Of a DNA stretch of 64,000 bases, positions 983 through 63,142 are shown in pieces (position 1 is the first letter of the stretch; each line of letters starts with the position of its first letter). The notes under the pieces were generated by a model. It saw nothing but the letters and a program-made list of their open reading frames with translations. It had not been told where the DNA came from and did no database searches. This DNA comes from an uncultured beta proteobacterium (GTDB lineage Bacteria > Pseudomonadota > Gammaproteobacteria > Burkholderiales > SG8-39): contig CAIOLO010000019.1 in the NCBI GenBank assembly GCA_903859155.1, forward strand, positions 74,472 to 138,471. Reading direction: 5' to 3'. The position numbers and the translations under genes are program-made.

Positions 983-1082
983 TCGCGGCGCTGTGCCGCG
1001 GTACAGGGTTATGCGCAGTGAGGTACCGGTGGCGCGCAGGTTCGCCTGTCGTTTCTCTCGTTAATCGTCAGTGGGGTCAGCG

Positions 1083-2114
1083 ATGAAAAAAATTTCGTTC
1101 GAAGAGCACTTCTTTACCAACAGCCATCTCGATGCCCTGCGCGCGCACAAGGGCTATCCGCGGCTCGAAAAATTCACCGACCAGAATGGCAACACCGCAG
1201 ATCGTTTGATGCGCATGCCCGGCAGCTTCCAGGACATGTCTGCGACCATCGTCGGCCGCCTCCTCGATTTGGGCGAAGGTCGCGTGGCGGCGATGGACGC
1301 GGCGGGCATCGACATGCAGGTGCTCAGCATGGCAGGGCCGGGAATTGAAGAACTGGACCTGCCAACCGGGCGGGCGCTGGCAAAAGACATCAATGACGAA
1401 CTGGCCGAAGCCATCGCGCGCCGGCCGGATCGATTCACCGGCCTTGCAACGCTGGCCTATGGCGACCCTGAAGGCGCTGCGGCCGAACTCGAACGCGCCG
1501 TAACCAAGCTCGGTTTGAAAGGGGGCAAGCTCAACTCGCACCTTGCCGGGGAGTATTTGGACCACCGCAAATACCGGGTGCTCTGGGAGACCGCCGAGCG
1601 GCTTGGGGTGCCGATGATGCTGCACCCTAAGGATCCGCCCGCCGGCGTACTGACCGCCCTGGCGGATTATCCGGGGCTTACGCAGGCGGCCTGGGGTTTC
1701 GCCTTCGACGCGGCCACGCACTCTCTGCGGCTCATCGCCAGCGGACTTTTCGATGCCTGTCCAAAGCTGAAGATCGTGCTCGGACACCTGGGCGAATCGA
1801 TTCCATTCTGGCTGTGGCGCATCGACAACCATTGGACCCGGTCGCCGATGACCGTCGCGCTGCAGCGCCGGCCGAGTGAATATTTCCTCGACAACTTTCT
1901 GGTCAGCACCAGCGGGATGTTTCACGACCCGCAGTTTCAGTGCGTCTACCAGACGCTCGGGGCGGACCGGATCATGTTTGCAGTGGACTACCCCTACGAG
2001 GCCATGGAGCAGGGCGCGCGCTTCATCGAAGGCATCGTCATCCCGGAGGGCGACAAGCGCAAGATCTGCAGCGGTAACGCGGAGAAATTGCTGGGCCTGA
2101 AGTCCGTTGAGTAG
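1083..2114 (+). CDS. Amidohydrolase-2 family non-oxidative decarboxylase-like protein (gamma-resorcylate / 2,3-dihydroxybenzoate decarboxylase, LigW-like)
   Basis: ORF 1071..2114; ATG at 1083 preferred. N-terminal 'KISFEEHF' metal-ligand motif, 'MLHP', 'LGHLGE' and 'FAVDYPY' match the ACMSD/gamma-RSD superfamily pattern as I remember it. Confidence 0.7.
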   Translation: MKKISFEEHFFTNSHLDALRAHKGYPRLEKFTDQNGNTADRLMRMPGSFQDMSATIVGRLLDLGEGRVAAMDAAGIDMQVLSMAGPGIEELDLPTGRALAKDINDELAEAIARRPDRFTGLATLAYGDPEGAAAELERAVTKLGLKGGKLNSHLAGEYLDHRKYRVLWETAERLGVPMMLHPKDPPAGVLTALADYPGLTQAAWGFAFDAATHSLRLIASGLFDACPKLKIVLGHLGESIPFWLWRIDNHWTRSPMTVALQRRPSEYFLDNFLVSTSGMFHDPQFQCVYQTLGADRIMFAVDYPYEAMEQGARFIEGIVIPEGDKRKICSGNAEKLLGLKSVE

Positions 2115-2178: not shown

Positions 2179-3609
2179 ATGGCGTTCAAGGATTTGCGGG
2201 ACTTTGTCGCGCGGCTGGAAAAAGAAGGCGAACTGAAAACATTCAAGGAGGAAGTGGACTGGAACCTGGAAGCAGGTGCCATTACGCGCCGCGCCCTTGA
2301 GACCGGATTGCCGGCGCCGTTTTTCGAAAAGGTCACCGGCTATCCGCAGGGCTACCGGCTGACAAGCTCGGTGCTTGCCAACGTCAAGCGCATTGCGATC
2401 GCGATGGACATGAACGTGGAAACGCCGATGCGGGAACTCATCGAAGAGTATCTGCGCCGCCAGAAAAAGCCGATCAAGCCCGTGACGGTCAAGACCGGTG
2501 CGTGCAAGGAAAACATTCTTCTTGGCGACAAGGCCGACCTGCTGAAGTTTCCGGTGCCATTCATCCATGACGGCGACGGCGGCCGGTATCTGGGCACCTG
2601 GCACCTGACTGTCACCAAGGACCTGGACAGCGACTGGCAGAACTGGGGCATGTATCGCCACATGCTGCACGACAGCCACTCCTTCGGCGTGCTCGCGCCT
2701 TCACCGAAGCACCTGGGCATCATGGCCGACCAGAAGTACGGCGCCAAGAACATCGGCATGCCGGTGGCCGTGGTCATCGGTACCGAGCCGATCTGCACCT
2801 TCTGCGCCGCTACGCCGCTTCCCTACGGCGTCTCGGAGGTGGACGTGGCCGGCGGACTGCGCGGCCAACCGGTGGAGATGGTGAAGTGCGAAACCAGCGA
2901 CCTGATGGTGCCCGCCCATGCGGAGATAGTTGTCGAAGGCGAAATCATGCCCGGTGACAGCAAGGACGAGGGGCCCTTTGGCGAGTACACCGGCTATCGC
3001 TCCGGCGCGGCCAGCCCCAAACCGGTCATCCGCGTCAAGGCGATCACCCACCGCAACAACCCGATTTTCACTTTCTCCTGCCCCGGGGTTCCGCTGGACG
3101 ATTCGGCGTCGGTGTTCTCGGTCAACAAGAGCGCCCAGTTCCTCGACGAGCTGCGCTCCAAGGGCCTGCCGGTCACCGGAGCCTACCTGATCGTCGAAGG
3201 CGCGAGCCATGCGATCGCCGTGTCGGTGAAGAACGCCTACTACGGCATCGCCGGAGAAATTGCGCACGTCATCTGGAGCGCGCGCCACGGGCTTCTGACC
3301 CCGAGCGTGATCGTGGTGGAAGACGACGTCGATCCGTGCAACCTGCAGCAGGTGTTCCACGCGCTGATGACCAAGTGCCACCCCGGGCGCGGCATCAACA
3401 AGATCGATCATGCCACCGCCTGGCCGCTGATTCCCTGGCTGAGCGAGTACGAGCGCGAGCATCGCATCGGCGCACGCGTGTATTACGACTGCACCTGGCC
3501 GGTGGAATGGCCCCTCGCGGACCGGCCGGTACGCCAGTCATTCAGCGAGTGCTATTCGAAGGAAGTGCAGGAGAAGGCGCTGGCGAAGTGGCGCGCGCAG
3601 GGTTATTGA
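2179..3609 (+). CDS. UbiD-family (prFMN-dependent) decarboxylase, copy 1
   Basis: 476 aa. N-terminus 'FKDLRDFVARLEKEGEL', 'NWGMYR' Arg motif and 'EGPFGEYTGY' acid-base motif. Confidence 0.85.
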   Translation: MAFKDLRDFVARLEKEGELKTFKEEVDWNLEAGAITRRALETGLPAPFFEKVTGYPQGYRLTSSVLANVKRIAIAMDMNVETPMRELIEEYLRRQKKPIKPVTVKTGACKENILLGDKADLLKFPVPFIHDGDGGRYLGTWHLTVTKDLDSDWQNWGMYRHMLHDSHSFGVLAPSPKHLGIMADQKYGAKNIGMPVAVVIGTEPICTFCAATPLPYGVSEVDVAGGLRGQPVEMVKCETSDLMVPAHAEIVVEGEIMPGDSKDEGPFGEYTGYRSGAASPKPVIRVKAITHRNNPIFTFSCPGVPLDDSASVFSVNKSAQFLDELRSKGLPVTGAYLIVEGASHAIAVSVKNAYYGIAGEIAHVIWSARHGLLTPSVIVVEDDVDPCNLQQVFHALMTKCHPGRGINKIDHATAWPLIPWLSEYEREHRIGARVYYDCTWPVEWPLADRPVRQSFSECYSKEVQEKALAKWRAQGY

Positions 3610-3654: not shown

Positions 3655-3688
3655 TTTAAAACTCTCAGGACGCGGAACGTCGCGTCCT
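3655..3688 (-). terminator. Candidate intrinsic terminator for the minus-strand operon ending at 3688
   Basis: 8-bp stem AGGACGCG/CGCGTCCT (3667-3674 / 3681-3688). On the minus strand it is followed by GAGAGUUUUAAA. It sits between convergent genes. The U-tract is separated from the stem by 5 nt, so the call is only moderate. Confidence 0.4.
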
Positions 3689-4650
3689 CAATCGGCGACG
3701 AGCACGAACTTGCAACGCGCGCCGCGATGCAGTTCGCCGTAGGTTTCGACCCCTCGTACCAAGGGGCGTTCCTCCATGCCGCTCGGTGGCGTGAGCTGTC
3801 CGGCGTCGAACGCCGGCTGCAGGCGCGACAGGATTGCGGCGCAGTCGGTCGCGCTCAAGAGCAGTGAATTGATGCCGACGATGCTGCCCGCGCGCCGGTA
3901 CAGATCGCGCGTCGGCACGTTGACCATGCCGTCGCCGTGCGCGACGATGATGGCGACGCGCCCGTAGGGTGCCAGGACCGCAATGGCTTCGGCCAGGCAG
4001 GAGCCGGTGGTGTCGAACACCACGTCAAAGCCGCTGCCCAGGGTCGCTTTTGCGGAATTGGCGAGGCTTTCGCCCGGAGCCATCAGCACCGTCGGCACTC
4101 CCTGCGCCTGGAGCGCGGAGGCCTGGCCGGGTTTTCTTACCGCAGCGGTAACTTCGGCGCCCAGCCACCGGGCCAGGGTGAGCGCAGCGCTGCCGACGCC
4201 GCCGGCTGCGCCGATGACGAGCAGGCGGCACTCCTTGCCCACACCGCAGCGCTGGAGGGCGCTCCAGGCGGTCGTATAGGGCACCCCGCAAGCCGCCGCC
4301 TGGGAAAACGACAGTGACTCTGGTTTGAGTGCGACCCCGCCTGTCGGGGCGGTGATGAACTCCGCGTGGCTGCCGTTGCGGGTGAAGCCGAATTCCTTGC
4401 CGGTGCCCCACACGGCGCGGCCGGCGAACTCAGGCGGCCCCTCGATGACGATGCCGGAGAAATCCCTGCCGGGCGTGCGCGGCAGCGTGGTGTAGGGATG
4501 CTTGCCCAGGACATTGGATACATCGCTGGTGTTCAGCCCCGCAGCAGCGACGCGCACCAGCACTTCGTCTGTGCCTGCCTTCGGCCGCGGGCGCTCGATC
4601 AGTTCGAGCTCGGCGAGCGTACCCGTGACATTGAACTGCAGTGCCTTCAC
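3688..4650 (-). CDS. Zn-independent MDR-family NAD(P)H:quinone oxidoreductase-like protein
   Basis: 320 aa. GroES-like N-terminal domain ('EVLVRVAAAGLN') and Rossmann motif 'GAAGGVGSAA'. It is the last gene of the 8909->3688 operon. Confidence 0.7.
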   Translation of the reverse strand: MKALQFNVTGTLAELELIERPRPKAGTDEVLVRVAAAGLNTSDVSNVLGKHPYTTLPRTPGRDFSGIVIEGPPEFAGRAVWGTGKEFGFTRNGSHAEFITAPTGGVALKPESLSFSQAAACGVPYTTAWSALQRCGVGKECRLLVIGAAGGVGSAALTLARWLGAEVTAAVRKPGQASALQAQGVPTVLMAPGESLANSAKATLGSGFDVVFDTTGSCLAEAIAVLAPYGRVAIIVAHGDGMVNVPTRDLYRRAGSIVGINSLLLSATDCAAILSRLQPAFDAGQLTPPSGMEERPLVRGVETYGELHRGARCKFVLVAD

Positions 4651-4656
4651 TGCGGC

Positions 4657-4887
4657 CTACTTCTGCCGCCGCAGCGGGGGAATGGGGGGTTTGTCGCTCA
4701 TCTGGCGAATTCTCTCATCGTTGAGTTTGAAGTCGGGGTCATAGAGATCCGGCCGGATGACTTCTTCTTCCTCGGTACTGCGCCAGACGAAGAAGCAGCG
4801 CGGGCAGCGGTACAACTCCCAGGCGCCCTTTTCGGGCGACTCGAAGAACTGAAAGGCCGTGGCATCGTCGCAGCGGGGGCATATCAT
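4657..4887 (-). CDS. Hydroxyarylic acid decarboxylase small subunit D (BsdD/VdcD/ShdD family)
   Basis: 76 aa. 'CPRCD...GAWELYRCPRCFFVWRS...DPDFK' matches the four-Cys Zn-ribbon pattern of BsdD-type subunits. The start overlaps the stop of the C subunit (ATGA at 4884-4887). Confidence 0.8.
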   Translation of the reverse strand: MICPRCDDATAFQFFESPEKGAWELYRCPRCFFVWRSTEEEEVIRPDLYDPDFKLNDERIRQMSDKPPIPPLRRQK

Positions 4888-6296
4888 GGCTTGGCCATCC
4901 TTTTCTGGATCTCTTCTATCCAGAACGGCACGCCGGTGGGGATCACCACGCTGGCCGCGTCGGACAGGGGGATATCGGGATAGGCGGGTCTGGCGGCATC
5001 GATGATGATCTTGGTGCCCAGACCACGCACCAGGTGCGCCGGGTCGAGCGTCGAGGCGGGTGCGTTGGGAATGATCACCAGATCGCGTTCGGGCCGGAAA
5101 CGCACCGTCATCGCCCAGATCACCTGGTTGAGATCGAACGGATCGACATCTTCGTCAACGATGATGATGATCTTGGGATAGGTGACCCCGTGCGGCGTGG
5201 AGAGCAGCCTGCATCCGAGCGTCTTGGCGAAGCCGCCAAAGCGCATCTTCGCCGAGATGATGGTGCAATAGCCGTGCGTGTACATGGCGTTGACCGCCTC
5301 GACCTCGGCAAAGTCCGCCTTCATCTGCTTGTAGATGGTGGCGCAGGTGTTCAGGCCCTGCAGGTAGTCGATTTCGGTCCAGGGTTCGCCGGTGTAGAGA
5401 TTTTCGAAAATCAGCGTGTCGCGCCGCCGCGTGATGGTATCGACCTCGATTTCCACCTGCATCATGGAAGTGGAATAGGAGCCCGGATACTCGGCAAACG
5501 GCCCTTCGATAAAGCGCTTGCGCGGCGTGATGGCGCCTTCGATGACGATCTCGGCATGGGCCGGAACGTCGAGGTCGCCATGTTCGGAGGCGACCGTCTC
5601 CAGGGCCTCGCCGCGGATTGCGCCCATCATCGAGTATTCGTCCTCGTTGTACTTGAGCGGCGAGACGGCGACGAAAGGCACTGACGGGTCGTTCGAGATC
5701 GACACCGCGACGCGCAGCGGCTGATTGATCTCCTCGGCCTTGCGCAGGAATATCGCGAGGTCGTGCTGCGCCGAGATCTGGATGCCCAGGCGCTTGTGGT
5801 CTTTCACCTGCATGCGGTACATGCCGACGTTCTGGTTCGAAGGATCTTCGGGGTCGCGGGCGGCGACGCAGGCCTTGGACAGGTAAAACCCGCCGTCCAT
5901 GGGATTGACGCGGAACAGCGGCAGTTCCTTGAACAGGCTGAAGTCATCCTTGAGAATGACCTGCTTCACCGGCGCATTGGTGATGCGCTTCGGTTTCAAG
6001 GGGTAGCGGTCCCAGCGGCGCAGAATCTCGAAGAACTGCGCTTTCACCGGGGTGTGCTTGGGCATCTCCAGCGATAGCGCGTGATTCGCCCAGGAACCAT
6101 GCACGTTCATCGCAATCTGCTTGTCGGGATAACCGCGCAGCTTTTCAAACAGTATCGCCGGACCTGTGGCGGATTTGGTTGCAGCGCAGGCGATGGTGCG
6201 CACATCGGGTTCGAGGCTGACCTCTTCCTTGATGCGCAGCAGTTGTCCCTCTTCCTCGAGGCGGCGCAGGAAGTCTCTCAGGCTGTTGTAGGCCAT
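4884..6296 (-). CDS. Hydroxyarylic acid (4-hydroxybenzoate/vanillate/protocatechuate-type) decarboxylase subunit C, UbiD family, copy 2
   Basis: 470 aa. Near-colinear with Bacillus BsdC as I remember it ('MAYNSLRDFL..EEEGQLL', 'IAMNV.GSW.NHA', 'QNVGMYRMQVK', 'EGPFAEY', 'VNAMYTHG', 'VDEDVDPF'). Confidence 0.85.
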   Translation of the reverse strand: MAYNSLRDFLRRLEEEGQLLRIKEEVSLEPDVRTIACAATKSATGPAILFEKLRGYPDKQIAMNVHGSWANHALSLEMPKHTPVKAQFFEILRRWDRYPLKPKRITNAPVKQVILKDDFSLFKELPLFRVNPMDGGFYLSKACVAARDPEDPSNQNVGMYRMQVKDHKRLGIQISAQHDLAIFLRKAEEINQPLRVAVSISNDPSVPFVAVSPLKYNEDEYSMMGAIRGEALETVASEHGDLDVPAHAEIVIEGAITPRKRFIEGPFAEYPGSYSTSMMQVEIEVDTITRRRDTLIFENLYTGEPWTEIDYLQGLNTCATIYKQMKADFAEVEAVNAMYTHGYCTIISAKMRFGGFAKTLGCRLLSTPHGVTYPKIIIIVDEDVDPFDLNQVIWAMTVRFRPERDLVIIPNAPASTLDPAHLVRGLGTKIIIDAARPAYPDIPLSDAASVVIPTGVPFWIEEIQKRMAKP

Positions 6297-6297
6297 G

Positions 6298-6654
6298 TCA
6301 GATGGGGGTGAAAAGCGCGGCGTGCGGCCGGCTTTCCATCAGTTCTGCAAGCTTTTTGACGCTGCCGTAGTGGATGCAACTCGCCTGGCAATGCTTGACG
6401 CAGGACGGGGATTCCCCGTCGTTCGTCCGGGACTTGCACAGGTTGCAGTACATGGTGGGAAACGGCAGGTAATCGATGCGCAGGGACTTGTCGGGCCGCT
6501 CGGTGAGGAACTCGGTGAGTTTGAGGCCGCCGCGCCCTACCGGGTAATTATGTTCCTGCTTGCAGGCGATTTCGCAGGAATGGCAGCCGGTGCAGTATTC
6601 ATAATCGATCAGCAGGCCCATGCGTTTCACAGGTTTTTTGGCTGTGGCGTTCAT
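6298..6654 (-). CDS. Small 2x[4Fe-4S] ferredoxin-like subunit (mini DmsB-type)
   Basis: 118 aa. 'CTGCHSCEIAC' (CxxCxxCxxxC) plus 'CNLC..x11..CVKHCQASC'. ATGA overlap with the upstream Mo enzyme (6651-6654) and a 1-nt gap to the downstream UbiD gene. Confidence 0.7.
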   Translation of the reverse strand: MNATAKKPVKRMGLLIDYEYCTGCHSCEIACKQEHNYPVGRGGLKLTEFLTERPDKSLRIDYLPFPTMYCNLCKSRTNDGESPSCVKHCQASCIHYGSVKKLAELMESRPHAALFTPI

Positions 6655-8909
6655 ACGGTGGCTTCCTCATCCTTGACCTTGTAGACCTTGCACAACATCG
6701 TCTTGGTGGCCGCGCCGCCGAAGCCGGAAGTGCTCTGTTCGCCCATTGGGATGAGCTGGTTCACGTTGAGATCCCATACGCCGTAGAAATTGGGCGAGGT
6801 GCCGTCAGTCTCCGGCAGCCACCAGCCATGCAGGGCGTGGATCATCTGGCGGTGCATGGTCGGTGTGAGCCTGGCGCGGCGCTTGACCTTGCCGCGCACG
6901 CCTTCAATCCACACCATGTCGCCGTCCTTGATGCCCAGTGGCGCGGCGGTCTCGGGATGCATTTCCATTTCCGGAAAAGGCGACAGTTCGCGCAGCCAGG
7001 GAATCTGCCGGTGCTCGCTGTGGAAGAACGCGCTGTTGCGCCGGCCCGTGATCATGATCAGAGGGTATTTCTCCCAAATCTCGGGTGTGCTCAGCGGACT
7101 CTCGATGGGTTCGCGGTGATAGGGCAGCGGATCCAGGCCGTACTTCTCGTAGTTGGTGCAGTACAACTCGACCTTGCCGGTGTTGGTTCTGAAGCCGGGC
7201 TGGCCGTCGGGCCGCAACTGCCCCTTCTCATGGCGGCGGTATGGCACGGTGCCGGACTTGTGGTTCTTCGGCGCCATCGTCCAGGACTGCTCGGCAAGCT
7301 GCTCGAAAGTGAGACCCGTAGCCTTGAGCCGGAGTGTCATCAGCTCGCGCACGTTGGCCCAGGGGACGGCTTGGGGATTAAGGCGCTTGGCCAGTTCGAA
7401 GTTGATTTCCCAGTCGGAGCGGCACTCGCCGACTTGAATGACTTTCTGGATCGCGTTGATCGGCACGCCGGTGGTGAACACCGAATCCTTCTCCGGGAAA
7501 CTGCCCGCCGGAAGGATGATGTCGGCAATTGCCTGCGCCGTTGGCGTCATGAAGGTGTCGACCACCACGTTGAACTCGAGCTTGCGCACCGCTTCGTAGT
7601 GGCGCTTGGGGTCCTGGGCTGTGTTGGCGAGAAAATTGTTCGTCTGGCACCACAGGCCCTTGATCGGGTAAGGCTTCTGCGTTTCCATCTGCTCGAGCAC
7701 CATGTCCGAGAGGGCCCAGGCACGGAAGTTCTTGACCAGCGGAAAGCGGTCCGCGCCGATGCGTTTCTTGGTGAGGTTGGCAACGAACTCCTCGCCGTAG
7801 AGATCGATAACCTCCTGCGTCGAGTACGGGTAGATGGTGACCCCGAAAGGCGGGCGGGTGATGACGTTGCCGCCGGGGATGTCGATGTTGCCGGTAATGG
7901 CCCACAGGCAGTTGAGCGCGTGTATGGTGCTGGTCGCTTCGCGGTTGCTGTCAAGGGGCTGGCCGAAGCGCATCCCCGCCGGCTTGGCCGTGGCATACAT
8001 GCGCGCGGCCTTGACGATCTTTTCCGCCGGCACCCAGGTGATCGCGGCGGCCTTTTCCGGTGTGTATTCCTGCACGCGCTGCTTCAGTTCCTCGAAGCCG
8101 TGCGTCCACTTGGTGACGAACTCCTTGTCGTAGAGGTTCTCGTTGATGATGACGTTGAGCATGGCCAGCGCCAGCGCGCCGTCGGTGCCCGGGCGGATCT
8201 GCAGCCACAGCTCGGCGCGCGAGGCTTCCCAGGAGCACACCGGGTCGATGACGATGAGCTTGGTGCCGCGCTTCATCATGTCCACGGCCCAGTGGCCGGA
8301 GAAGTAATGGTCGGTGCAGCCGCTGCCCGCAAGATTGCGCGCCCAGGACACCAGCACCTCCGGTGCCTTCCATTCCGGATCGTCGTAGCGCTGCGGCGAG
8401 AACTGCGCGGCATCGGGGAAGGTGAAATCACCCATCACCATCGACATCGCCGCCAGGCGCGGCGTGAAACAGGAAATGCCCGACAGTCCGAACAGCGTCC
8501 AGTTCGGGCTGCCATAGGCATACGCCAGGAAAATGATGTAGCCGCCGGCGTCACGCCCGGTACCCTGCCCGAATACCATGGATTCAGGGCCGTATTTGTC
8601 GCGGATGGTGCGCATCTTGTCCTCGCAGGTATCGAGCGCCTCGTCCCAGGAGATGCGTGCCCACTTGCCTTCACCGCGCGCCCCGACCCGTTTCATCGGG
8701 TACTGCAGGCGATCCGGGTGATAGATGTACTGCGTGAGCGCCAGCGCTCGAGGGCACAAGCGTCCCTGCAAATAGGGATGATCCTCATCGCCCTCGCATT
8801 TGGTCAGCTTGCCATCCTTGATGGTCACTTTGACCCCGCAACCGCCGTGACAGCCCGGACCGGCGGACCAGGCCCCCATCCTGACAACGCGTTCGCCCAT
8901 TTCGCCCAT
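6651..8909 (-). CDS. Cytoplasmic molybdopterin (bis-MGD, DMSO reductase superfamily) enzyme, acetylene-hydratase-like
   Basis: The ORF runs to 9251, but ATG 8909 has the RBS GAGGGAGG 7 nt upstream and family homology starts there ('MGAWSAGPGCHGGCGVKV...LCPR' Fe-S domain). Other family features: 'LQYPMKRVG.RGEGKW.RISWDEAL', 'GTDGALALAMLNVIINENLYDKEFV', 'TPTAQ.ADIILP'. No twin-arginine signal. Confidence 0.8.
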   Translation of the reverse strand: MGEMGERVVRMGAWSAGPGCHGGCGVKVTIKDGKLTKCEGDEDHPYLQGRLCPRALALTQYIYHPDRLQYPMKRVGARGEGKWARISWDEALDTCEDKMRTIRDKYGPESMVFGQGTGRDAGGYIIFLAYAYGSPNWTLFGLSGISCFTPRLAAMSMVMGDFTFPDAAQFSPQRYDDPEWKAPEVLVSWARNLAGSGCTDHYFSGHWAVDMMKRGTKLIVIDPVCSWEASRAELWLQIRPGTDGALALAMLNVIINENLYDKEFVTKWTHGFEELKQRVQEYTPEKAAAITWVPAEKIVKAARMYATAKPAGMRFGQPLDSNREATSTIHALNCLWAITGNIDIPGGNVITRPPFGVTIYPYSTQEVIDLYGEEFVANLTKKRIGADRFPLVKNFRAWALSDMVLEQMETQKPYPIKGLWCQTNNFLANTAQDPKRHYEAVRKLEFNVVVDTFMTPTAQAIADIILPAGSFPEKDSVFTTGVPINAIQKVIQVGECRSDWEINFELAKRLNPQAVPWANVRELMTLRLKATGLTFEQLAEQSWTMAPKNHKSGTVPYRRHEKGQLRPDGQPGFRTNTGKVELYCTNYEKYGLDPLPYHREPIESPLSTPEIWEKYPLIMITGRRNSAFFHSEHRQIPWLRELSPFPEMEMHPETAAPLGIKDGDMVWIEGVRGKVKRRARLTPTMHRQMIHALHGWWLPETDGTSPNFYGVWDLNVNQLIPMGEQSTSGFGGAATKTMLCKVYKVKDEEATV

Positions 8910-9059: not shown

Positions 9060-9581
9060 ATGGGTGCAACCGGTCCCGGTGATGCATGGACTGTGCCCGC
9101 TCTGCGGGCCGAGATCGAGGCTTTTCTGGCCGCCTGGCACACGCTGGCGCTGGCCACCGTGGCCGAGGACGGCAGCGCGCATGCCGCGTCGCTGCTCTAT
9201 GCGCCGGATGGTTTGGGCCTGGTCTGGACATCGGATCCGCGCAGCCGGCACTCGCAGTATCTCGATGCGCGTCCCCGGGTTACGGCAACCGTTGCGCCGG
9301 ATTACAGCGACTTCGCAGCGATTCGCGGCCTGCAGATGGCAGGTGAGGCCGTCCGCCTTAGCGGCCCCATGGAAATGGCGCGCGCCGGTGCGTTGCTGAC
9401 GACACGCTATCTGTTTCTTGCGAAGCTCTCAGGCGCACCCGCGGTATTGCGCGCAGCCTGGGACAAGGCGAGCTTTTACCGTTTCAAGCCATCGCGCATC
9501 ACGCTGATCGACAATACCCGCGGGTTCGGGCACAAGGCGACTTTGCTGGTCGCCGCCGACGGTACCCTGGCCCTGGGGTAA
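9060..9581 (+). CDS. Pyridoxamine 5'-phosphate oxidase-family FMN-binding split-barrel protein
   Basis: ORF 9018..9581; ATG 9060 preferred. The pattern 'LATVAEDGSAHAASLLYA....LVWTSDPRSRHSQ' is typical of PNPOx-like small flavoproteins. Confidence 0.5.
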   Translation: MGATGPGDAWTVPALRAEIEAFLAAWHTLALATVAEDGSAHAASLLYAPDGLGLVWTSDPRSRHSQYLDARPRVTATVAPDYSDFAAIRGLQMAGEAVRLSGPMEMARAGALLTTRYLFLAKLSGAPAVLRAAWDKASFYRFKPSRITLIDNTRGFGHKATLLVAADGTLALG

Positions 9582-9624: not shown

Positions 9625-10905
9625 TTAACCCGCTGCGCCCCCGCCGATTGCGGCCTTCGGCTTTTCCTTCAATGCGACCAGCAGAAACATCGCCAGTTGC
9701 AGCGCCACCAGCACGGCAAAGATCGCCTGGTAGCCCTCGGCCGCGTATCGTCCGTTGACCGCAGGCCACTGGTCTAGCGTCGCGCCGACGCTCCACTGGA
9801 ACAGGAACGCAAGTGAAAAGATCAGCAGGTTGGCGGCCGTATTGACCCGCCCGGCGAATTCCGGAGGAAACTGGCGCGAGAGCATGGCCAGCACCATCGG
9901 GCTGCCCGAACCCATTAAGAAATAAGCGAACCAGATCGGCGTTGCTTTGTCTCCGAGCAGCACGATGAGGGCAAACAGGATGGTGATGATGCCGCTCTGT
10001 ATTTTGTAGAGTGTCAGGGCGCGCACGCCGCGACGGATCAGCCGGTCGCAGATGGCTCCGCTCACGACCAATCCGGTTACCGCGGTGCCGGCATACCAGG
10101 TCATCAGTGCAAGTGCCTGCGGCCGCTGGTATCCGCCCACGTCGCGCAACCAGGGGCCGATCCACAGGCTTTGCAGGGCCCAATTGGTGCCGGCGATCAT
10201 CGCCATCAGCATCGACAGGCGCCAGAACGTGCCGTTTGCGGCAATTCTGCCGAATCCCGCCGCCAGTGCGGTGAGCGACTGTTCCGGGTCGGCGTCGCGG
10301 TGCTCGGGCACAACCAGGTAGAGCAGGGCCGAGGCAAATATCAGCAGCCCTGCAGCCACCGAGAAGACAACGCGCCAGGATACGTATTCCAGCGACCATC
10401 CCACCGGGCCGGCGGCCATGATCGCGCCCAGGCCGCCGAACGCCATCAGCAGGTTCAGTGACAGAGGCACGCGCGGCAAAGCGAACCATTGGGTGAACGC
10501 TTTCGCCGCCCCCATCAACCCCACCGCCAGTCCCAGTCCGATCAGCGCACGCCCTGTGGCGATGGCAATGAAGCTGCTGCCGATGGCATGCAGCGCGCAG
10601 CCCAGTGCCGCGAGCAGCAGCAGCGATGCATGCACCCGCCGCGATCCGTAGCGGTCCAGCAGGATGCCCGCCGGCAGTTGGGTAAGCGAGAAACCGACGA
10701 AAAAGACGCTGGTCAGCAGCCCCAGATCCGAGGCGCTCAGCACGAATTCCGCCGTCAGCTCCGGCACCAGGACGGCATTGATATTGCGCAGGGCATTGGA
10801 GAGAAAATAGCCCAGCGCATAGGGCAGCCAGATCGAAGCCACCAGCCGCGGCCCCTTCGCGCCTGCCGAGGGCGGTTGCGGCGGCCCATAGGCGGAGGAC
10901 TTCAT
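9625..10905 (-). CDS. MFS transporter
   Basis: 426 aa and hydrophobic throughout. The loop motif 'LPAGILLDRYGSRR' between TM2 and TM3 is typical of MFS proteins. It lies downstream of transhydroxylase-like pair 1 on the same strand. Confidence 0.8.
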   Translation of the reverse strand: MKSSAYGPPQPPSAGAKGPRLVASIWLPYALGYFLSNALRNINAVLVPELTAEFVLSASDLGLLTSVFFVGFSLTQLPAGILLDRYGSRRVHASLLLLAALGCALHAIGSSFIAIATGRALIGLGLAVGLMGAAKAFTQWFALPRVPLSLNLLMAFGGLGAIMAAGPVGWSLEYVSWRVVFSVAAGLLIFASALLYLVVPEHRDADPEQSLTALAAGFGRIAANGTFWRLSMLMAMIAGTNWALQSLWIGPWLRDVGGYQRPQALALMTWYAGTAVTGLVVSGAICDRLIRRGVRALTLYKIQSGIITILFALIVLLGDKATPIWFAYFLMGSGSPMVLAMLSRQFPPEFAGRVNTAANLLIFSLAFLFQWSVGATLDQWPAVNGRYAAEGYQAIFAVLVALQLAMFLLVALKEKPKAAIGGGAAG

Positions 10906-11044
10906 GCGGCGTGTCCGCCGTGCCGGCGCTGCGCTGCTTCAGGCGTCACCGCGGGCGCCGCTGGCATGGGCGGGCGGCCAGTTGCCGCAAACGCGCGATT
11001 CTGTCGCAGGCGGAAGTGGTCAAGCGGATGGCCCGCCCGGCAAT

Positions 11045-11908
11045 CTATGCCGCCTTCGCAGCTTTGGGTTCGAGCGCGATGGCACCCAGATGGCAGCTTT
11101 TTTTCAAAGCGAACTCCAGCGTTTTGCTGCTGAAACGCGGATCGCTCACCTCGATGCGGTAGCTGGCGCCGTCTGCATCCAGCCGGCGGAAACGGAAATC
11201 CCCGTAGGTGTCGCTCACCGTTTCGGCCAGCTTCTGCGTACCCTTCCACAGAACGATGTGAGCATCCGCGATGCATTCGATTGCCCCGTTGAGCATTCCT
11301 TCCAGTGTACCGCCGACGAAGGACTTGAAATAGCTGTCGAGGTTCTTGTAATACACGCGCGGCTTGTTGCCGAATTCGGGGTGAAGCACCTCGAGCTTCT
11401 CGTCGCGCACCATGCGCTGCATTTCCTCGTCTTCCAGATGCAATGTCTGGAAGGCATTGGTCGGACACACCTGCGAGGCGCGCGTCTGCGTCCACCCCTT
11501 GTCGAGCAGGTGCGCGTCGAACGGCCAGGTCTGCGGCAGCTGTTTTTCTTCGTTCCACCAGATCATGCCGTAGGGGCAGGACTTGACCAGTTCCGGGTGC
11601 CCCTTGGAGCGCACCGGGTCGAAAATCACGATGCCGTCGGCGCGCTTGCTGATCGCGCCCTCGGGTGCGCCCTTCATGCAGCTGGGTTCGTCGCAGTGGT
11701 TGCAGGTTACCGGCAGATAGGCCACCTCCACCATGGGATATTCGCCCTGTTCGCGCTGCCGGATCTCGATCCAGCGATGTCCCTGACGCGGCATCTCTTC
11801 GGCATAGCCGGGGAATGAATTGCCGCAGTACTCGTCGTGTACGGCGAGCGCGCAGTTGTTGCAGTTAAAGCACTTCGCTACGTCGATGAGCAGGTTCCAC
11901 TTTTTCAT
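11045..11908 (-). CDS. Pyrogallol hydroxytransferase/resorcinol hydroxylase-like small (beta, Fe-S) subunit, paralog 1
   Basis: True start is '[19 protein letters not shown]' at 11908, overlapping the alpha stop (ATGA). It has 'CNHCDEPSC', 'SCPYG' and a C-terminal carboxypeptidase-regulatory-like beta-sandwich ('YGDFRFRRL'). Only 8 canonical cluster cysteines are present. Confidence 0.8.
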
Positions 11909-14900
11909 GACGGCATCGCCTCCTTGGCTGCGGCTGCATTGGCCGCCACTTTTTCGCTGGTACCAGCGCGCGCGCCCAGGGCCGTCGAGCCGTCCCAGAG
12001 TTCCACCTCCACCAGGCAGGAATTGGGCGCCATCCCCAGCACCTTGCTGGCGATGGAGCGCTTGGGCGTGAGATTGTTGATGCAACCGCCGCGGTCGACC
12101 GAATTCCCCGGTTCGCCCAGAGGGTCGTACACCGCCGAGGAAGAGTAGGAGTGCGCCGTCCCTTGCCCCAGCCGGCTGGTTACATGCGCAGCGCACAGGA
12201 CCGCGCCGCGATCATTGTGCACTTTGACCAGGTCGTGGTGTTTGATGCCGCGCGCCCGGGCGTCCTGGGCGTTGATCCGCACCACCCAGTAGTAGTAGCC
12301 CTTCACCAGTACGCGGTGTTCGGCGATGTCGTTGGTCGAGCATTGCTTGCCGTCGGCGAAGGTGTGAAAACTGAAGCGCGAGTGCGGCGAGAGCAGTTGC
12401 AGCGGAAAACGCCCGAACAGCTCCTTGGTCTGCGGGCCTTCCCAGGACTGCAGGTATCTTACGATCGGCGGGCGCTCCGGATCGTTTGCATCGAAATGCT
12501 TGAGACTGGAGCACTCGAACTCGAACTTGCCGCTCTGGGTCTGCAGCCCCATCAGGAACTGCTTGCGGTAGTCGCCCGGCAGGGGAGAGGGCTCGGGCAC
12601 GTCCTTCTTGCGGCCCTCGTAGAACCAGCGCATCGCCACCGGGTCGCGCTTGCCCTCTTCGAGCGGCGGCACGACGTAATAGCCCTTTTTCAGGAACTCC
12701 TTCCACGAGATGACTTTGGGCAGATCGGAGGCGTCGAACACGCGCTTCACCCAGTCGAGCTCGTTCATGCCTTCGCAGAAATAAGTGCCCAGGCCCAGCC
12801 GGCTGCAGATCTCGGTGAAAATCCGGATGTCGGACTTCGATTCGCCCAGCGGCTCTATGCATTTGTGCTGCAGCATGATGACGCGGTGGTTCATCTGCGT
12901 CTGATAGTGCATCCCATAGCCGCCCGCGTGGGCCAGATCGCTGATGTCCCAGCGCTCGAACTGGGTGCAGGCGGGCAGCAGAACGTCGGCGAACTTCGCT
13001 TCGCCTTCGAACCAGATTGATTGATTTACGACGAACTCGAGCTTGTCGGTACGGTACATGTTCACGTAGCGGTTGGTCTCGGTCATGGTGCCGATGGACG
13101 CACCGCCGTACTTGTAGAGCATCTTGATGGGCGAATGGCCGGGCGCCGGATAGGAAAACTTCATGAACTGGCCTTCGATGGTGAAGCCGTTCCATGGATA
13201 GCCCTCGGCCTTGCCATCCATGATGGCCTCCGGAATGCGCAGGCGCGGCACTTTCTGCATCGAAGGGCCGTAGCTGGGCAGCTGCGGCATGCGCTGATAG
13301 AGGCTGACCGGGATGCCCGTGTTCTGGATGTCGCCCGACATACCGCCCTCGGCGTAGCCGGGGAAATAGAAGCGGATGTCGATAGGCCCGCCGTACTGCA
13401 GGTTGCCGTAGTTCACGCCGGGCTTGCCCATGCCCTGCATGCCCATGAGGCAGGCCAGCGCGCGAGCAAACTGGATGCCGTTGGCGGCGCGGCAGGCGCC
13501 GCCGTGCCCGTTGCCCGGGCCTCCGGCCGCGAGGTAGGTCTTTGTCTTGCCCCACTTGCGCGCAAGGGCTCGCACTTCCTTCGCCGGGACCCCCGTTTCC
13601 GCCTGTTGCCATTCAGGGGTTTTCGGCACACCGTCTTCCTTGCCCAGGACGTAGTCGCTCCAGACATCGAAGCCCACGCAGCGGTCGGCGACGAATTTCT
13701 TGTCGTACAGCCCCTCGGTCATCCAGACGTGCGCGATTGCCAGGGCGAGCGCGGTGTCGGTGCCGGGTTTGGGCGCCATCCATTTCCCGCCCAGCAGCGC
13801 CGCCGTGTGGTTGAAGTAGGGATCGATGTGCACCAGCTCGATGCCCAGGTCCTTGAGCCACTGCCTGCGGATGGTGGCCTCGAACCCGCCGTAAGCGCCA
13901 TTGGTGGCTTCCGGGTCGGACGACCAGAACACCATCATTTCGCATTCCTTCATGCAGTCTTCGATGGTGTTGTAGAACTCCACCTGCCCCAGGCGCATGC
14001 TGTAGCCGTAATGATGCGTGGCGCCCCAGTACCAGCCCTCCCAGCTGTCGGGGTTGTGCGCCACGCGCGAGGCGCCGATGGTGTTGAAGAACTTGTAGGC
14101 CGCGCTGATGTAGTAGCCGATGTTGCCCCACATGTGGTGCGAGCCGTGGTTGCCCAGGATGGCGCCCTGTCCATGCTCCGTCTTGACGCGGGTGATCTCG
14201 CCGGCGACGATGTCGAGGGCCTCTTCCCAGCTGATCCGCTCATACCCGGAGATGCCGCGATTCTGGGGGTTGCGTTCGCCTTTCGGATCGAAATCGACGC
14301 GTTTCATGGGGTAGAGCAGCCGGTCCGGCGAGTAGAGCGTCGATTTCACGCTGACGCCGTGGGGCGAAAGCGTGGTCTTGTGCGGAGGGGTGAAGCTCTT
14401 GCCGCGCGCCTTGATGGTCCACGCCGGGGCATCCTGGTCGGTGAATTCCATCGGTGTGGTGCGAATGACCTTGCCGTCCTTCACGTAGACGAACAAGGGG
14501 CCGCCATTGGTATTGGTGACATAGCGTTTGGTCCCGTCGCCCATGTCGATGCCGTACTCGACCTCCGGGTTCTGCATCAGCATCATGGTCTGGGTGAACC
14601 AGACGATCAGTTCGTCCGAGCCGTCGGCGCCGAACTGATAGTTCTTCATCGCCTCGATGCGCTCCAGTTGGTCCACCCAGGGCACGAACAGCCGCGCGCC
14701 GATCTTCGCCGAGGCGACGCTGATGGTGATGTCCGGTTTCGGGTGGAGGCCGCTCTCTGAGCTGACCCGCCCGTCATTGAAGGTGTAGTACCGGGCTATC
14801 GACTTATCCGCCGTCGCGATCTGGCAGGTGAAGTTCTTTTCCTTGAGCCTTTTTGCGAACTCGGGGAAGCGGCTCGCCTGGAAATTGAGCGCATGGGTCA

Positions 14901-14943
14901 TGCCGTACAGGATCACGGAAAACTTGGTGGCCGCGAGACTCAT
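11905..14943 (-). CDS. Pyrogallol hydroxytransferase/resorcinol hydroxylase-like large (alpha, Mo-bis-MGD) subunit, paralog 1, with an SCP2-like N-terminal extension
   Basis: ORF 11905..14958. ATG 14943 has the RBS AAGAGG. The core is colinear with paralogs 2 and 3 ('[34 protein letters not shown]', '[16 protein letters not shown]', 'VFWSSDPE'). The extra ~140 aa at the N-terminus is absent from paralog 3. Confidence 0.8.
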
Positions 14944-14994
14944 GGTCGCCTCTTTCATCTGGGTTGAGCATAGGTGAGGAACTGATGCGCGCGA

Positions 14995-15105: not shown

Positions 15106-15873
15106 TTGAGCCGTTCGAAAATGCTCTCGATTCTGGATCTGTTTGACAAGGCTTCGCCGGCCTGGTCAGCGGATGCCATTTGTGCGCGCCTGGGCTGCTC
15201 AACCTCGAGCGGCTATCGCTACATCCGCGAGTTGTGCGCGGTTGGACTGCTGACCCGCATCTCGGGTGGGACCTATGTGCTGGGGCCGAGAATCGTGCAG
15301 CTGGAACTGGTCATGAGGGAAATCGATCCGGTGTCAAAAACCGGCCTGCCGCTCATCGCCGACCTGGTGCGCCAGACCGGCTGCGACGTGTTGCTGGCCA
15401 ATATGTACGGCGACCATATCGTCAATGTGCTGCACGAACGCGGCGCAGAACAGCTGCCCCTCAGCTATGAGCGCGGCCGCCCGCACCCCTTGTTTCGCGG
15501 CGCCATGTCGAAAGCCATCCTTGCGTTTCTGCCGCGCGCGCGCGCGCTGCGCCTGTACAACGCGCATGCGGCCCTGGCCGCAGAGAGCGGCATGGGCCAC
15601 AGCTGGCGCGAGTTCTGGCAGGCGCTGCAGCAGATCCGTAAGAAAGGCTTCAGCGAGAGCGACGGCGAGCTCGATGCGGGCGTGATCGGCATAGGCGCCC
15701 CGGTGCTCAACGGTGACGAAATCATGGGCAGCATCTCGATCGGCTGCTCGCGCGCCCGGCTGGCCTTGCTGAACAAGGCGAATCTGACCGAGTTGCTGCT
15801 GTCAACCGCAAGGCAGATCAGCCAGGAGGTGGAACGGATTTCGCATGCGGAGCCCACGCCAGGCGCGGTGTAG
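15106..15873 (+). CDS. IclR-family transcriptional regulator
   Basis: 255 aa (TTG 15106, or ATG 15121). N-terminal wHTH 'LSILDLF......SADAICARLGCSTSSGYRYIRELCAVGLL' and a C-terminal IclR effector domain ('GVIGIGAPV...GSISI'). Confidence 0.85.
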   Translation: MSRSKMLSILDLFDKASPAWSADAICARLGCSTSSGYRYIRELCAVGLLTRISGGTYVLGPRIVQLELVMREIDPVSKTGLPLIADLVRQTGCDVLLANMYGDHIVNVLHERGAEQLPLSYERGRPHPLFRGAMSKAILAFLPRARALRLYNAHAALAAESGMGHSWREFWQALQQIRKKGFSESDGELDAGVIGIGAPVLNGDEIMGSISIGCSRARLALLNKANLTELLLSTARQISQEVERISHAEPTPGAV

Positions 15874-21629: not shown

Positions 21630-21753
21630 AATAGTCTCCTCGCGGTGCGGCCGATTCCGTCACCAGGGGGCGGAAGGCAGGTTGCAGTCTGCCACACCTG
21701 GCGACATGGCGTAGTTCAATGCCGGCGCGGCGAATAACCATTCTGGAGTGAAG

Positions 21754-40708: not shown

Positions 40709-40968
40709 GGTCCCTCCTTGCTTACGGATGGTTTGGTTGAATTGGCCTGCGCACGACAGGGCACAGCGGATATGCGACTGTCTGGGACAGTCGCGCTTAC
40801 GCTGCATTGGCGAATGATGGGCGCAAGCGGCGCGCAGGCATTGATCTTGGTCAAAGGCACGGAAATCGCCTTGCAGTGAATGCGAAGCTCGCGTGCGAGT
40901 GCGATACGTTTTTCTGAAACAGGCCCGCATTCACTGCTGCCGAATCTGCGGCGACCAGTCCTGCTAAT

Positions 40969-48497: not shown

Positions 48498-48503
48498 GCG
48501 TTT

Positions 48504-52458: not shown

Positions 52459-52459
52459 T

Positions 52460-63141: not shown

Positions 63142-63142
63142 C

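Follow-up and report, generated by a model that had tools for sequence, protein, structure and literature searches.

The element described here lies in a 64,000-nt stretch of contig CAIOLO010000019.1 (assembly GCA_903859155.1, positions 74,472 to 138,471 of the forward strand), assigned to an uncultured beta proteobacterium of the Burkholderiales lineage SG8-39; the whole stretch is called the window below. Five genes on its minus strand, between 3688 and 8909, encode a predicted molybdenum or tungsten (Mo/W) enzyme of the bis-MGD (bis-molybdopterin guanine dinucleotide) type, a small iron-sulfur (Fe-S) protein (Fd), the C and D subunits of a hydroxyarylic-acid decarboxylase (VdcC and VdcD), and a reductase of the medium-chain dehydrogenase/reductase (MDR) type (Table 1). 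The GC content at third codon positions (GC3) of the five frames is 0.77–0.84 and the order Mo-Fd-VdcC-VdcD is seen again in other lineages, confirming that these open reading frames (ORFs) are not chance. The identical five genes are found on three other contigs, where independent gene calls arrive at identical lengths for all five products.

The Mo/Fd and VdcC/VdcD junctions, read directly, are ATGA overlaps of 4 nt each. The Fd/VdcC junction consists of a TGA, a 1-nt gap, and an ATG, and the VdcD/MDR junction of a TAG, a 6-nt gap, and the GTG start. An earlier note on this DNA had given the same five genes, lengths, overlaps, and gaps, and these have been confirmed by the ORF coordinates, the reading of the junctions, and the independent gene calls. 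A Shine-Dalgarno sequence, GGGAGG, lies 7 nt ahead of the Mo-gene ATG at 8909. An 866-aa ORF running to 9251 has been rejected as an artefactual 5′ extension of the Mo gene; homologs and the independent gene calls begin at the 8909 ATG. The 4-nt overlaps and the 1-nt gap imply co-translation, and the explanation that we favour, with modest confidence, includes the five genes forming one tightly coupled transcription and translation unit that encodes three activities. The end of the unit had been described as a hairpin with a U-tract. The hairpin is present, with a GC-rich stem of 7 bp (3687–3668), but the tract amounts to only four T after a 6-nt spacer, and a terminator scan did not call it. 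As an intrinsic terminator, this hairpin is a weak candidate.

Table 1. Genes and features of the five-gene unit and its surroundings, in window positions
Feature	Position	Strand	Basis
Amidohydro_2/ACMSD-type decarboxylase candidate, convergent with the unit	1071-2114	+	PF04909, 156 bits
UbiD paralog, decarboxylase candidate, convergent with the unit	2179-3609	+	UbiD domains; phenylphosphate-carboxylase-alpha-like, 380 bits, below cutoff
Hairpin GGACGCG-ACGTTC-CGCGTCC, then TGAGAG and TTTT	3658..3687	-	Directly after the MDR stop codon
Predicted NAD(P)H-dependent MDR/quinone-oxidoreductase-like reductase, 320 aa, GTG start	3688..4650	-	ADH_N + ADH_zinc_N
VdcD/BsdD-type small subunit, 76 aa, zinc-ribbon Cys C3, C6, C28, C31	4657..4887	-	NF041205
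UbiD-family, prenylated flavin mononucleotide (prFMN)-dependent hydroxyarylic-acid decarboxylase C subunit, VdcC/ShdC-like, 470 aa	4884..6296	-	UbiD_N/UbiD/UbiD_C
Small electron-transfer subunit, 118 aa, predicted 2x[4Fe-4S]	6298..6654	-	Weak Fer4 and DmsB/FdhB matches; eight Cys
Mo/W bis-MGD catalytic subunit, 752 aa	6651..8909	-	Pfam domains, PDB match, BLASTP, neighbour-joining tree
PNPOx/YhbP-like gene, flavin mononucleotide (FMN)-binding fold	9060..9581	+	PF01243, 39.9 bits; NF002900 (YhbP), 47 bits, below cutoff; GC3 0.74
Major facilitator superfamily (MFS) transporter, 426 aa, likely substrate importer	9625..10905	-	MFS_1, 124 bits
BthL-like Fe-S small subunit of pyrogallol-phloroglucinol transhydroxylase	11045..11908	-	Fer4_11 + CarboxypepD_reg
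AthL-like large subunit of pyrogallol-phloroglucinol transhydroxylase	11905..14958	-	PF21423 (AhtL-like_1st); 4v4c_A, 1027 bits, 53% identity
IclR/PcaR-family regulator, divergent from the AthL gene	15106..15873	+	IclR_C + HTH_IclR; TIGR02431 (pcaR_pcaU), 68 bits, below cutoff

The 752-aa enzyme contains the Molybdop_Fe4S4, Molybdopterin, and Molydop_binding domains of Pfam. Its best PDB match by phmmer is acetylene hydratase (AH; 2e7z, 333 bits), followed by PsrA (261 bits), and the transhydroxylase 4v4c_A scores only 46 bits. An AlphaFold model of moderate quality (16 sequences, pLDDT 67, pTM 0.69) has been used for a global fold match only; with it, Foldseek also places 2e7z first, with TM scores of 0.74–0.77. 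None of the curated NCBIfam models reaches its cutoff for this protein, the best being PhsA with 296 bits against 694. The catechol dehydroxylases have been described as the bis-MGD clade nearest AH, in which the Gordonibacter type is soluble, has no signal for twin-arginine translocation (Tat), is paired with a small 4Fe-4S protein, and adjoins MFS transporters (Maini Rekdal et al., PMC7028382). Three of these enzymes, Cldh, Dodh, and Eadh1, have been characterised biochemically (PMC12771579, PMC7028382). Purified Eadh1 takes off the C4 hydroxyl of urolithin M5 and, like the other characterised catechol dehydroxylases, strictly requires the catechol motif (PMC12771579).

Using the Cldh, Dodh, and “eadh1” sequences of the PMC7028382 alignment file, BLASTP gives the window enzyme 46% identity to Eadh1 over the full length (659 bits), 42% to Dodh (599 bits), and 44% to Cldh (597 bits). 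The values for the Thauera AR-1 cluster homolog (42%, 528 bits), the Archaeoglobus homolog (40%, 487 bits), and AH (33%, 332 bits) follow. In a neighbour-joining tree of about 90 sequences (a distance method with limited sampling, and AH set as the outgroup, not recovered as one), the window family and the three Gordonibacter enzymes are sister groups, with the Thauera and Archaeoglobus types outside that pair. Judged by these comparisons, the closest characterised relatives of the enzyme are the soluble Gordonibacter catechol dehydroxylases, not AH. The resemblance to AH proposed in the earlier note has therefore been retained for the nearest solved structure and not for the nearest characterised relatives. 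The block INE-LYDKEFV...GFEELK-RVQEY, which had been cited in its support, is truly shared with AH, but it is not AH-specific because a similar block appears in the PsrA alignment.

The enzyme has no RR motif, and its cluster motif begins at residue 14, leaving no room for a Tat signal; the earlier suggestion of a cytoplasmic protein is borne out by this feature. Pfam scans found no NrfD-like gene or membrane anchor in the five-gene unit. Most likely, the protein is a cytoplasmic enzyme that strips a hydroxyl from polyphenol rings. A respiratory reductase of the polysulfide/thiosulfate type (Psr/Phs) would explain why PhsA is the best NCBIfam match and PsrA the second in the PDB, but the scores lie far under the PhsA cutoff, the unit lacks a Tat signal, an NrfD-type anchor, and a four-cluster subunit, and the neighbourhood is unrelated to sulfur metabolism. 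The enzyme does not group with a respiratory Psr/Phs clade, and we have rejected this assignment as extremely improbable.

The N-terminal cluster motif of the window enzyme reads W14-S-A-G-P-G-C20-H21-G-G-C24, with C52 further on. The family form, W-S-x-G-P-G-C-H-G-G-C, is invariant in an alignment of 16 sequences, and its GPGCHGGC core is present in 64 of 81 family members. The pattern W-[ST]-x-P-G-C-H-x-G-C is common to the window enzyme, Cldh (WSGPGCHEGC), Dodh (WTGPGCHNGC), and Eadh1 (WSAPGCHEGC). The same position is occupied by CQSCDINC in AH, by CRSCHGGC in the Thauera type, and by a different motif in E. lenta Dadh. A proximal cluster with three cysteines, or with a shifted fourth ligand, is suggested since the canonical first Cys is always missing in the family. 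Two variants of the motif have been observed: GCGCHGGC in three actinobacterial loci (L041, L043, and L044) and GCGSHGGC, in which the Cys has moved two positions, in a Dehalococcoidales subgroup (L057, L058, L060, L062, L068, L073, L077, and L080–L082).

Alignment with AH identifies Cys147 of the window enzyme as the conserved equivalent of Cys141 and thus as the putative metal ligand that the earlier note had proposed to look for. Cys20, Cys24, and Cys52, the equivalents of AH Cys12, Cys16, and Cys46, are all conserved. The position of AH Cys9 is taken by Gly17, a glycine that is invariant in the family. AH Asp13 is said to sit beside the cluster ligand Cys12 and to activate the tungsten-bound water. 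In the window enzyme this residue is His21, and a histidine is found there in 16 of 16 aligned sequences and in 79 of 80 family members (the remaining one has a gap), as well as in Cldh, Dodh, Eadh1, and the Thauera and Archaeoglobus homologs. The hydrophobic substrate ring of AH, which we take to be formed by Ile14, Ile113, Ile142, Trp179, Trp293, and Trp472, is retained only at Trp179 (Trp207 in the window enzyme). The other five positions are Gly22, Gly118, Phe148, Phe315, and Gly481.

The 118-aa protein shows weak Pfam matches to Fer4, and its N- and C-terminal parts match DmsB/FdhB. The similarity covers the first and last Cys motifs of the four-cluster beta subunits of the FdhB/PsrB type; the middle domain is missing. 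Its eight cysteines (21, 24, 27, 31, 70, 73, 85, and 89) are conserved in at least 97% of 68 homologs adjoining Mo genes, and are enough for the two [4Fe-4S] clusters assigned to it previously. In 68 of 83 loci the Mo gene has a small Fe-S partner next to it, on one side or the other, which makes the Mo subunit and the eight-Cys mini-ferredoxin a near-universal pair. This conserved partner argues for a redox reaction, and a non-redox hydratase would be an unlikely fit because it does not need a dedicated electron-transfer subunit. A true acetylene-hydratase-type enzyme would agree with the best PDB match by sequence and fold and with the conserved equivalents of Cys141 and Cys12/16/46. Against this assignment stand the replacement of the catalytic Asp13 by His, the loss of Cys9 and of most of the AH pocket residues, the partner subunit, the 33% identity compared with 42–46% to the dehydroxylases, and a polyphenol-catabolism neighbourhood with no aldehyde dehydrogenase genes among the recurrent neighbours. 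Membership in the AH type has been rejected on these grounds and we regard it as highly improbable.

The 470-aa protein scores 373 bits with TIGR00148 (UbiD; cutoff 245) and 607.7 bits with NF041204 (VdcC; cutoff 650), and its best PDB match is the phenolic acid decarboxylase 7ae4 (499 bits). Its 76-aa companion reaches 95.6 bits with NF041205 (VdcD; cutoff 30), and the identical product in other contigs carries PF26358 (EcdD_BsdD_detox). The MDR protein matches the PIG3-family quinone reductase model with 125 bits, below cutoff, and quinone oxidoreductases of the PDB with about 90 bits. The ADH domains agree with the reductase assignment made before, as do the UbiD domains and NF041205 with those of the two decarboxylase subunits.

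More than 7,000 database proteins match the 752-aa enzyme at E <= 1e-30, the best 120 of them being 58–85% identical; in a plasmid collection nothing is closer than 36% identity. In a scan of species-representative genomes, 451 stretches encode a relative, and 80 of these loci have been kept. Their hosts include Rhodospirillaceae metagenome-assembled genomes (MAGs), Dehalococcoidales, Korobacteraceae, Desulfobacteraceae, Actinomycetes, and Lachnospiraceae/Oscillospiraceae, as well as Neomoorella sulfitireducens, Desulfopila aestuarii, Propionivibrio dicarboxylicus, and a Geopsychrobacteraceae MAG. The Mo-Fd pair occurs in Chloroflexota, Acidobacteriota, Desulfobacterota, Actinomycetota, and Bacillota. 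The family forms two subclades: subclade A (n = 44) includes the window and shares 61–85% identity with its enzyme, and subclade B (n = 39) shares 54–60%. The residues equivalent to AH 142 and 472 are F/G in subclade A and Y/W in subclade B.

Neighbourhoods have been compared over these 83 loci by tblastn mapping and neighbour clustering, with the phloroglucinol-pathway genes, namely the short-chain dehydrogenase/reductase (SDR) reductase, the cyclase, and BKACE, defined as in PMC10470551. Hydroxybenzoate decarboxylases, pyrogallol-phloroglucinol transhydroxylase, and genes of the phloroglucinol pathway are over-represented among the neighbours, and clustering also returns 3-hydroxyacyl dehydrogenase and thiolase genes. 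An aromatic-acid decarboxylase is nearby in 14 of 44 subclade A loci (VdcC in 6, Amidohydro_2 in 7) and in 5 of 39 subclade B loci (VdcC in none). The transhydroxylase genes AthL/BthL accompany 9 of 44 loci in subclade A, and AthL is found in 13 of 39 in subclade B, often as Mo-Fd-AthL-BthL. For phloroglucinol-pathway genes the counts are 4/44 and 15/39.

The Mo gene is found together with VdcC and VdcD in at least five other loci (L001, L013, L088, L028, and L006). The arrangement is Fd-Mo-VdcC-VdcD in a Thermodesulfobacteriota locus (L001), Mo-Fd-UbiD-BsdD in a locus with an 84% identical Mo protein (L088), and MFS-VdcC-VdcD-VdcC-VdcD-Amidohydro_2-UbiD-symporter-Mo-Fd in a peat Korobacteraceae locus (L006). 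In a Desulfatiglandales locus (L013), Mo-VdcC-VdcD lies beside 2-oxoacid:ferredoxin oxidoreductase genes, which fits a low-potential electron supply. Of the five-gene arrangement, whose recurrence had been proposed as a check, the Mo/Fd/VdcC/VdcD part thus recurs in other lineages but the MDR gene does not; MDR-like matches in two other loci (L023 and L032) are weak (25–30% identity) and lie at a distance from the Mo gene. In five loci of Chloroflexota, Actinomycetes, and Deltaproteobacteria (L036, L038, L041, L062, and L077), Mo-Fd is accompanied by a protein of about 640 aa, which by eye looks like a member of the aldehyde:ferredoxin oxidoreductase family of tungsten enzymes.

Based on these observations, we consider it somewhat probable that the unit specifies a Gordonibacter-type aryl dehydroxylase, soluble, reductive, and made of two subunits, together with a VdcCD decarboxylase and an MDR reductase, for the anaerobic catabolism of a gallate- or protocatechuate-type acid in the breakdown of tannins and polyphenols. 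From sequence and context we infer the reductive direction, the substrate, the order of the steps, and the role of the MDR protein. A galloyl- or protocatechuoyl-type hydroxybenzoate would be imported by the neighbouring MFS or TctC systems, and VdcCD would decarboxylate it to a polyphenol (gallate to pyrogallol or protocatechuate to catechol). The Mo enzyme would bind the vicinal-diol (catechol/pyrogallol) motif and remove one hydroxyl as water, with two electrons reaching it from a low-potential donor via the small Fe-S subunit. Possible reactions are pyrogallol to resorcinol, 1,2,3,5-tetrahydroxybenzene to phloroglucinol, and catechol to phenol. The meta-dihydroxy product, as its keto tautomer, may then be reduced by the MDR protein, and the adjacent AthL/BthL transhydroxylase would provide a parallel route to phloroglucinol.

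VdcCD-type enzymes act on para-hydroxybenzoic acids. Decarboxylation would precede dehydroxylation since this type needs the para-hydroxy group, and losing the hydroxyl first would leave it no substrate. The same order is suggested by the Gordonibacter eam cluster (PNAS 2025, PMC12771579), which comprises MFS transporters, the decarboxylase Eah, and the dehydroxylases Eadh1 and Eadh2, both of which have an Fe-S partner, and in which Eah acts before the two dehydroxylases. The general idea of the earlier note, a phenolic acid that is decarboxylated and a ring that is then modified by the Mo enzyme, is sound in view of the decarboxylases enriched beside subclade A loci.

Several points weigh against this proposal. 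The function of the environmental clade is read from sequence and gene context, the tree is a distance tree without support values, and identities of 42–46% fix neither substrate nor reaction direction. The two subclades are not alike in their active-site lining, which also departs from that of the Gordonibacter enzymes (the residues at AH 142/293/472 are F/F/G in the window), and the window cluster motif holds only three Cys. VdcCD and the Mo gene are neighbours in only about 6 of 85 loci, and related loci do not retain the MDR gene. A Pfam scan of about 50 window ORFs yielded no UbiX-type prFMN synthase (B subunit), whose gene may lie elsewhere in the genome. Finally, the strong link to the transhydroxylase and the phloroglucinol pathway could mean a different, transhydroxylase-linked role.

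That role has been formulated as an accessory of the transhydroxylase, in which Mo-Fd would make or remove 1,2,3,5-tetrahydroxybenzene (by pyrogallol hydroxylation or tetrahydroxybenzene reduction), or would reset the redox state of the transhydroxylase via the BthL Fe-S clusters, for which there is otherwise no explanation. In 22 of 83 loci the Mo gene has AthL/BthL within 10 kb, and in the window the pair is 2.1 kb upstream of it. Operons of the Mo-Fd-AthL-BthL type stand beside phloroglucinol reductase, cyclase, and BKACE in six loci (L049, Neomoorella; L054; L056; L071, Propionivibrio; L075; L079). The transhydroxylase needs tetrahydroxybenzene or dimethyl sulfoxide (DMSO) to start, and a second, DMSO-dependent enzyme has reportedly been inferred in Eubacterium oxidoreducens; both points count in favour of an accessory. 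To our knowledge, the physiological origin of the tetrahydroxybenzene cosubstrate has been unclear since about 1990.

On the other hand, purified AthL/BthL works alone in vitro, forming tetrahydroxybenzene by hydroxylation with a ferredoxin-type acceptor should be thermodynamically unfavourable, and the association of subclade A is stronger with decarboxylases than with the phloroglucinol pathway. A reciprocal scan that took the window AthL type as its anchor returned 80 metagenome loci. BthL is present in 67 of these and phloroglucinol genes in many, yet none carries the window Mo family; the transhydroxylase is therefore not generally in need of Mo-Fd. The obligate-partner form of the helper role is weakened by this result, and an accessory function in any form seems unlikely to us. 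Three of the 80 loci carry a Thauera AR-1-type AH-like enzyme beside AthL-BthL. These enzymes have the motif C-x-S/A-C-H-G-G-C, are about 40% identical to the window enzyme, and lie at 4881–6938 in L095, 7773–9845 in L098, and 7192–9273 in L148.

The adjacency of the Thauera AR-1 type to AthL/BthL ties more than one AH-related clade to (trans)hydroxylases, and it also counts in favour of an oxidative direction of the reaction. Like resorcinol hydroxylase or ethylbenzene dehydrogenase, a water-dependent, oxidative hydroxylase would introduce a hydroxyl group into resorcinol, phenol, 3,5-dihydroxybenzoate, or pyrogallol, with the small Fe-S subunit accepting the electrons. In principle, reactions of the DMSO reductase family can run either way, and the related Thauera AR-1 homolog is part of an oxidative 3,5-dihydroxybenzoate cluster and is needed for normal growth (PMC7028382). 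However, every enzyme characterised in the nearest clade is a reductive dehydroxylase (PMC7028382, PMC12771579), the hosts are mostly strict anaerobes and fermenters, and the unit has no membrane anchor or quinone-reactive subunit for electron disposal. We judge the oxidative direction improbable.

It can also be asked whether the genes belong to one pathway at all. In a polyphenol catabolic island, Mo-Fd and VdcCD would have different substrates and no more than an operon in common. The contents of the window would suit such an island (four UbiD, two Amidohydro_2, three AthL/BthL pairs, two coenzyme A (CoA) ligases, and about ten TctC), as would the minority of loci with adjacent VdcCD and the unconserved MDR gene. 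This is difficult to reconcile with the co-translation implied by the overlaps and the short gap, with the adjacency of Mo, Fd, VdcC, and VdcD in at least four distant lineages, and with the eam cluster, whose decarboxylase and dehydroxylases act in sequence (PMC12771579). The likelihood of unrelated substrates is in our opinion low.

A wider form of the dehydroxylase proposal is offered tentatively and with little confidence. Mo-Fd may serve environmental anaerobes such as peat Acidobacteriota, Dehalococcoidales, and Desulfobacterota as a dehydroxylase of free pyrogallol- or catechol-type phenols for carbon and energy. With VdcCD it might form a thioester-independent route of decarboxylation followed by dehydroxylation (gallate to pyrogallol to resorcinol or phloroglucinol), or it might alternatively be a supplier or consumer of the transhydroxylase cosubstrate 1,2,3,5-tetrahydroxybenzene.

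The earlier note had set the boundary of the locus at 8909. This holds for the unit itself, but it missed the AthL/BthL pair, the MFS gene, and the IclR gene upstream, and the two decarboxylase genes downstream. The PNPOx/YhbP-like gene, hidden beneath the over-long 866-aa ORF, lies between the MFS and Mo genes. The five genes probably have their own promoter because this opposite-strand gene separates them from the AthL-BthL-MFS unit. A syntenic contig (L092) has a 72% identical MFS copy after AthL-BthL and also ends in a PNPOx-like gene; the contig stops inside it and says nothing on the presence of a Mo gene. The window sequence matches metagenome and MAG contigs only.

The AthL/BthL genes at 11045–14958 carry the sequence features of the pyrogallol-phloroglucinol transhydroxylase type, to which we provisionally assign them. 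The equivalents of His144, Asp174, Ser175, and Tyr404 are conserved in the AthL-like protein, and Arg153 is replaced by Tyr; His144, Asp174, and Tyr404 reportedly have catalytic roles, and Ser175 is said to be the Mo ligand. An N-terminal extension of about 140 aa (14524–14958, minus strand) has no Pfam match and is missing from the P. acidigallici enzyme; judged by match length it is present in L010, L035, L072, L076, and most of the 80 metagenome homologs. The BthL-like protein is 38% identical to a Neomoorella BthL-like protein. An ORF at 10902–11558 (GC3 0.46) has been discarded as spurious, the true gene there being the BthL-like one.

Elsewhere the window contains another two AthL/BthL pairs, two further UbiD genes, a second Amidohydro_2 gene, and two CoA ligases; orthologs of phloroglucinol reductase, the cyclase, and BKACE are absent from it. 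The three paralogous pairs lie at 11045–14958 (-), 42741–46600 (-), and 60544–63976 (+), and their large subunits are 50–59% identical to each other. About ten TctC/Bug-type receptors (e.g., 2–982, 16047–17003, 20661–22716, 25978–26973, 29825–30802, 39731–40930, and 56632–57609) and a tripartite ATP-independent periplasmic (TRAP) DctPQM system (46696–49541) are interspersed with the catabolic genes, which suggests a proteobacterial-type host with uptake of many aromatic carboxylates. At 49877–54895 (+), a CoxM-type FAD-binding subunit gene and an AMP-forming ligase gene precede the gene of an 811-aa bis-MGD protein, which is 33% identical to the 752-aa enzyme and has an N-terminal [2Fe-2S] domain of the xanthine-dehydrogenase type. 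Electron modules of the xanthine oxidase family are here combined with a catalytic subunit of the DMSO reductase family, an unusual hybrid. Two short neighbouring ORFs at 24282–25556 (+), downstream of a UbiD paralog, carry an Ald_Xan_dh_C hammerhead and only the C-terminal part of MoCoBD_1, and look like a disrupted xanthine-dehydrogenase-family gene.

The enzyme class, its soluble form with two subunits, and its broad occurrence in the environment have already been published, as has a cluster of decarboxylase, MFS, and dehydroxylase genes (PMC7028382, PMC12771579). In the literature searched, we did not find the environmental sister clade as such, an operon fusion of the Mo clade with a UbiD-type VdcCD (nothing linking dehydroxylase, molybdenum, and UbiD), or a systematic association of the Mo clade with transhydroxylase and phloroglucinol-pathway genes; that on tetrahydroxybenzene and hydroxyhydroquinone returned nothing on the window Mo family. 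Hug et al. (2013) went no further than noting that AH-like and transhydroxylase genes occur together on Chloroflexi scaffolds. The catechol dehydroxylases characterised so far all come from gut Coriobacteriia, in which they act on drugs, neurotransmitters, and dietary polyphenols. The present locus belongs to a large environmental sister clade tied to genes for anaerobic gallate, pyrogallol, and phloroglucinol metabolism, and this clade provides candidate enzymes for pyrogallol, gallate, or tetrahydroxybenzene. If its members do remove hydroxyls from free polyphenols, they would supply a missing reaction in the anaerobic turnover of tannin and lignin phenols in peat, sediments, and aquifers; the “enzyme latch” question of PMC10470551 belongs to this setting.

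The classical route from gallate via pyrogallol to phloroglucinol uses a Mo enzyme, the transhydroxylase. This route and the eam cluster (PMC12771579) contradict the former claim that a link between a decarboxylase and a molybdoenzyme is unprecedented. The window system resembles the Gordonibacter dehydroxylases in the bis-MGD subunit of about 750–800 aa without a signal peptide, the conserved Cys at the metal-ligand position, the adjacent small 4Fe-4S protein, and the MFS neighbour (in the window, with one opposite-strand gene between). A decarboxylase acting before the dehydroxylases, as shown for eam, would be a further likeness. In contrast, the window enzyme falls in a separate environmental sister clade, with 54–85% identity within it and hosts that also include Proteobacteria-like MAGs. 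The window decarboxylase is a UbiD-type VdcCD, the regulator is of the IclR and not the LuxR type, and the setting is catabolic (transhydroxylase, and the phloroglucinol pathway in the clade) and not a gut biotransformation.

With AH of Pelobacter acetylenicus (2e7z), the window enzyme shares the predicted cytoplasmic location, the putative Cys metal ligand, and the N-terminal cluster domain, but AH is a non-redox monomer, whereas the window enzyme has a conserved electron-transfer partner. AthL/BthL of Pelobacter acidigallici (4v4c) is likewise a Mo enzyme, acting on trihydroxybenzenes in a gallate pathway, and among the neighbours of the Mo-Fd family its homologs rank first in frequency once the Fd partner is set aside. 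AthL, however, belongs to another DMSO-reductase subfamily, with a Ser ligand and without the N-terminal cluster, and unlike BthL, the window small subunit has two predicted clusters and no carboxypeptidase-regulatory-like domain. The decarboxylase resembles VdcCD/ShdCD/BsdCD and LpdBCD (vanillate, 4-hydroxybenzoate, and gallate) in its three UbiD domains, the four-Cys ribbon of the D subunit, and the 4-nt overlap of the C and D genes. It differs from VdcCD and LpdBCD in that the window unit has no B (UbiX-like) gene and its C and D genes are joined in an operon with a Mo enzyme.

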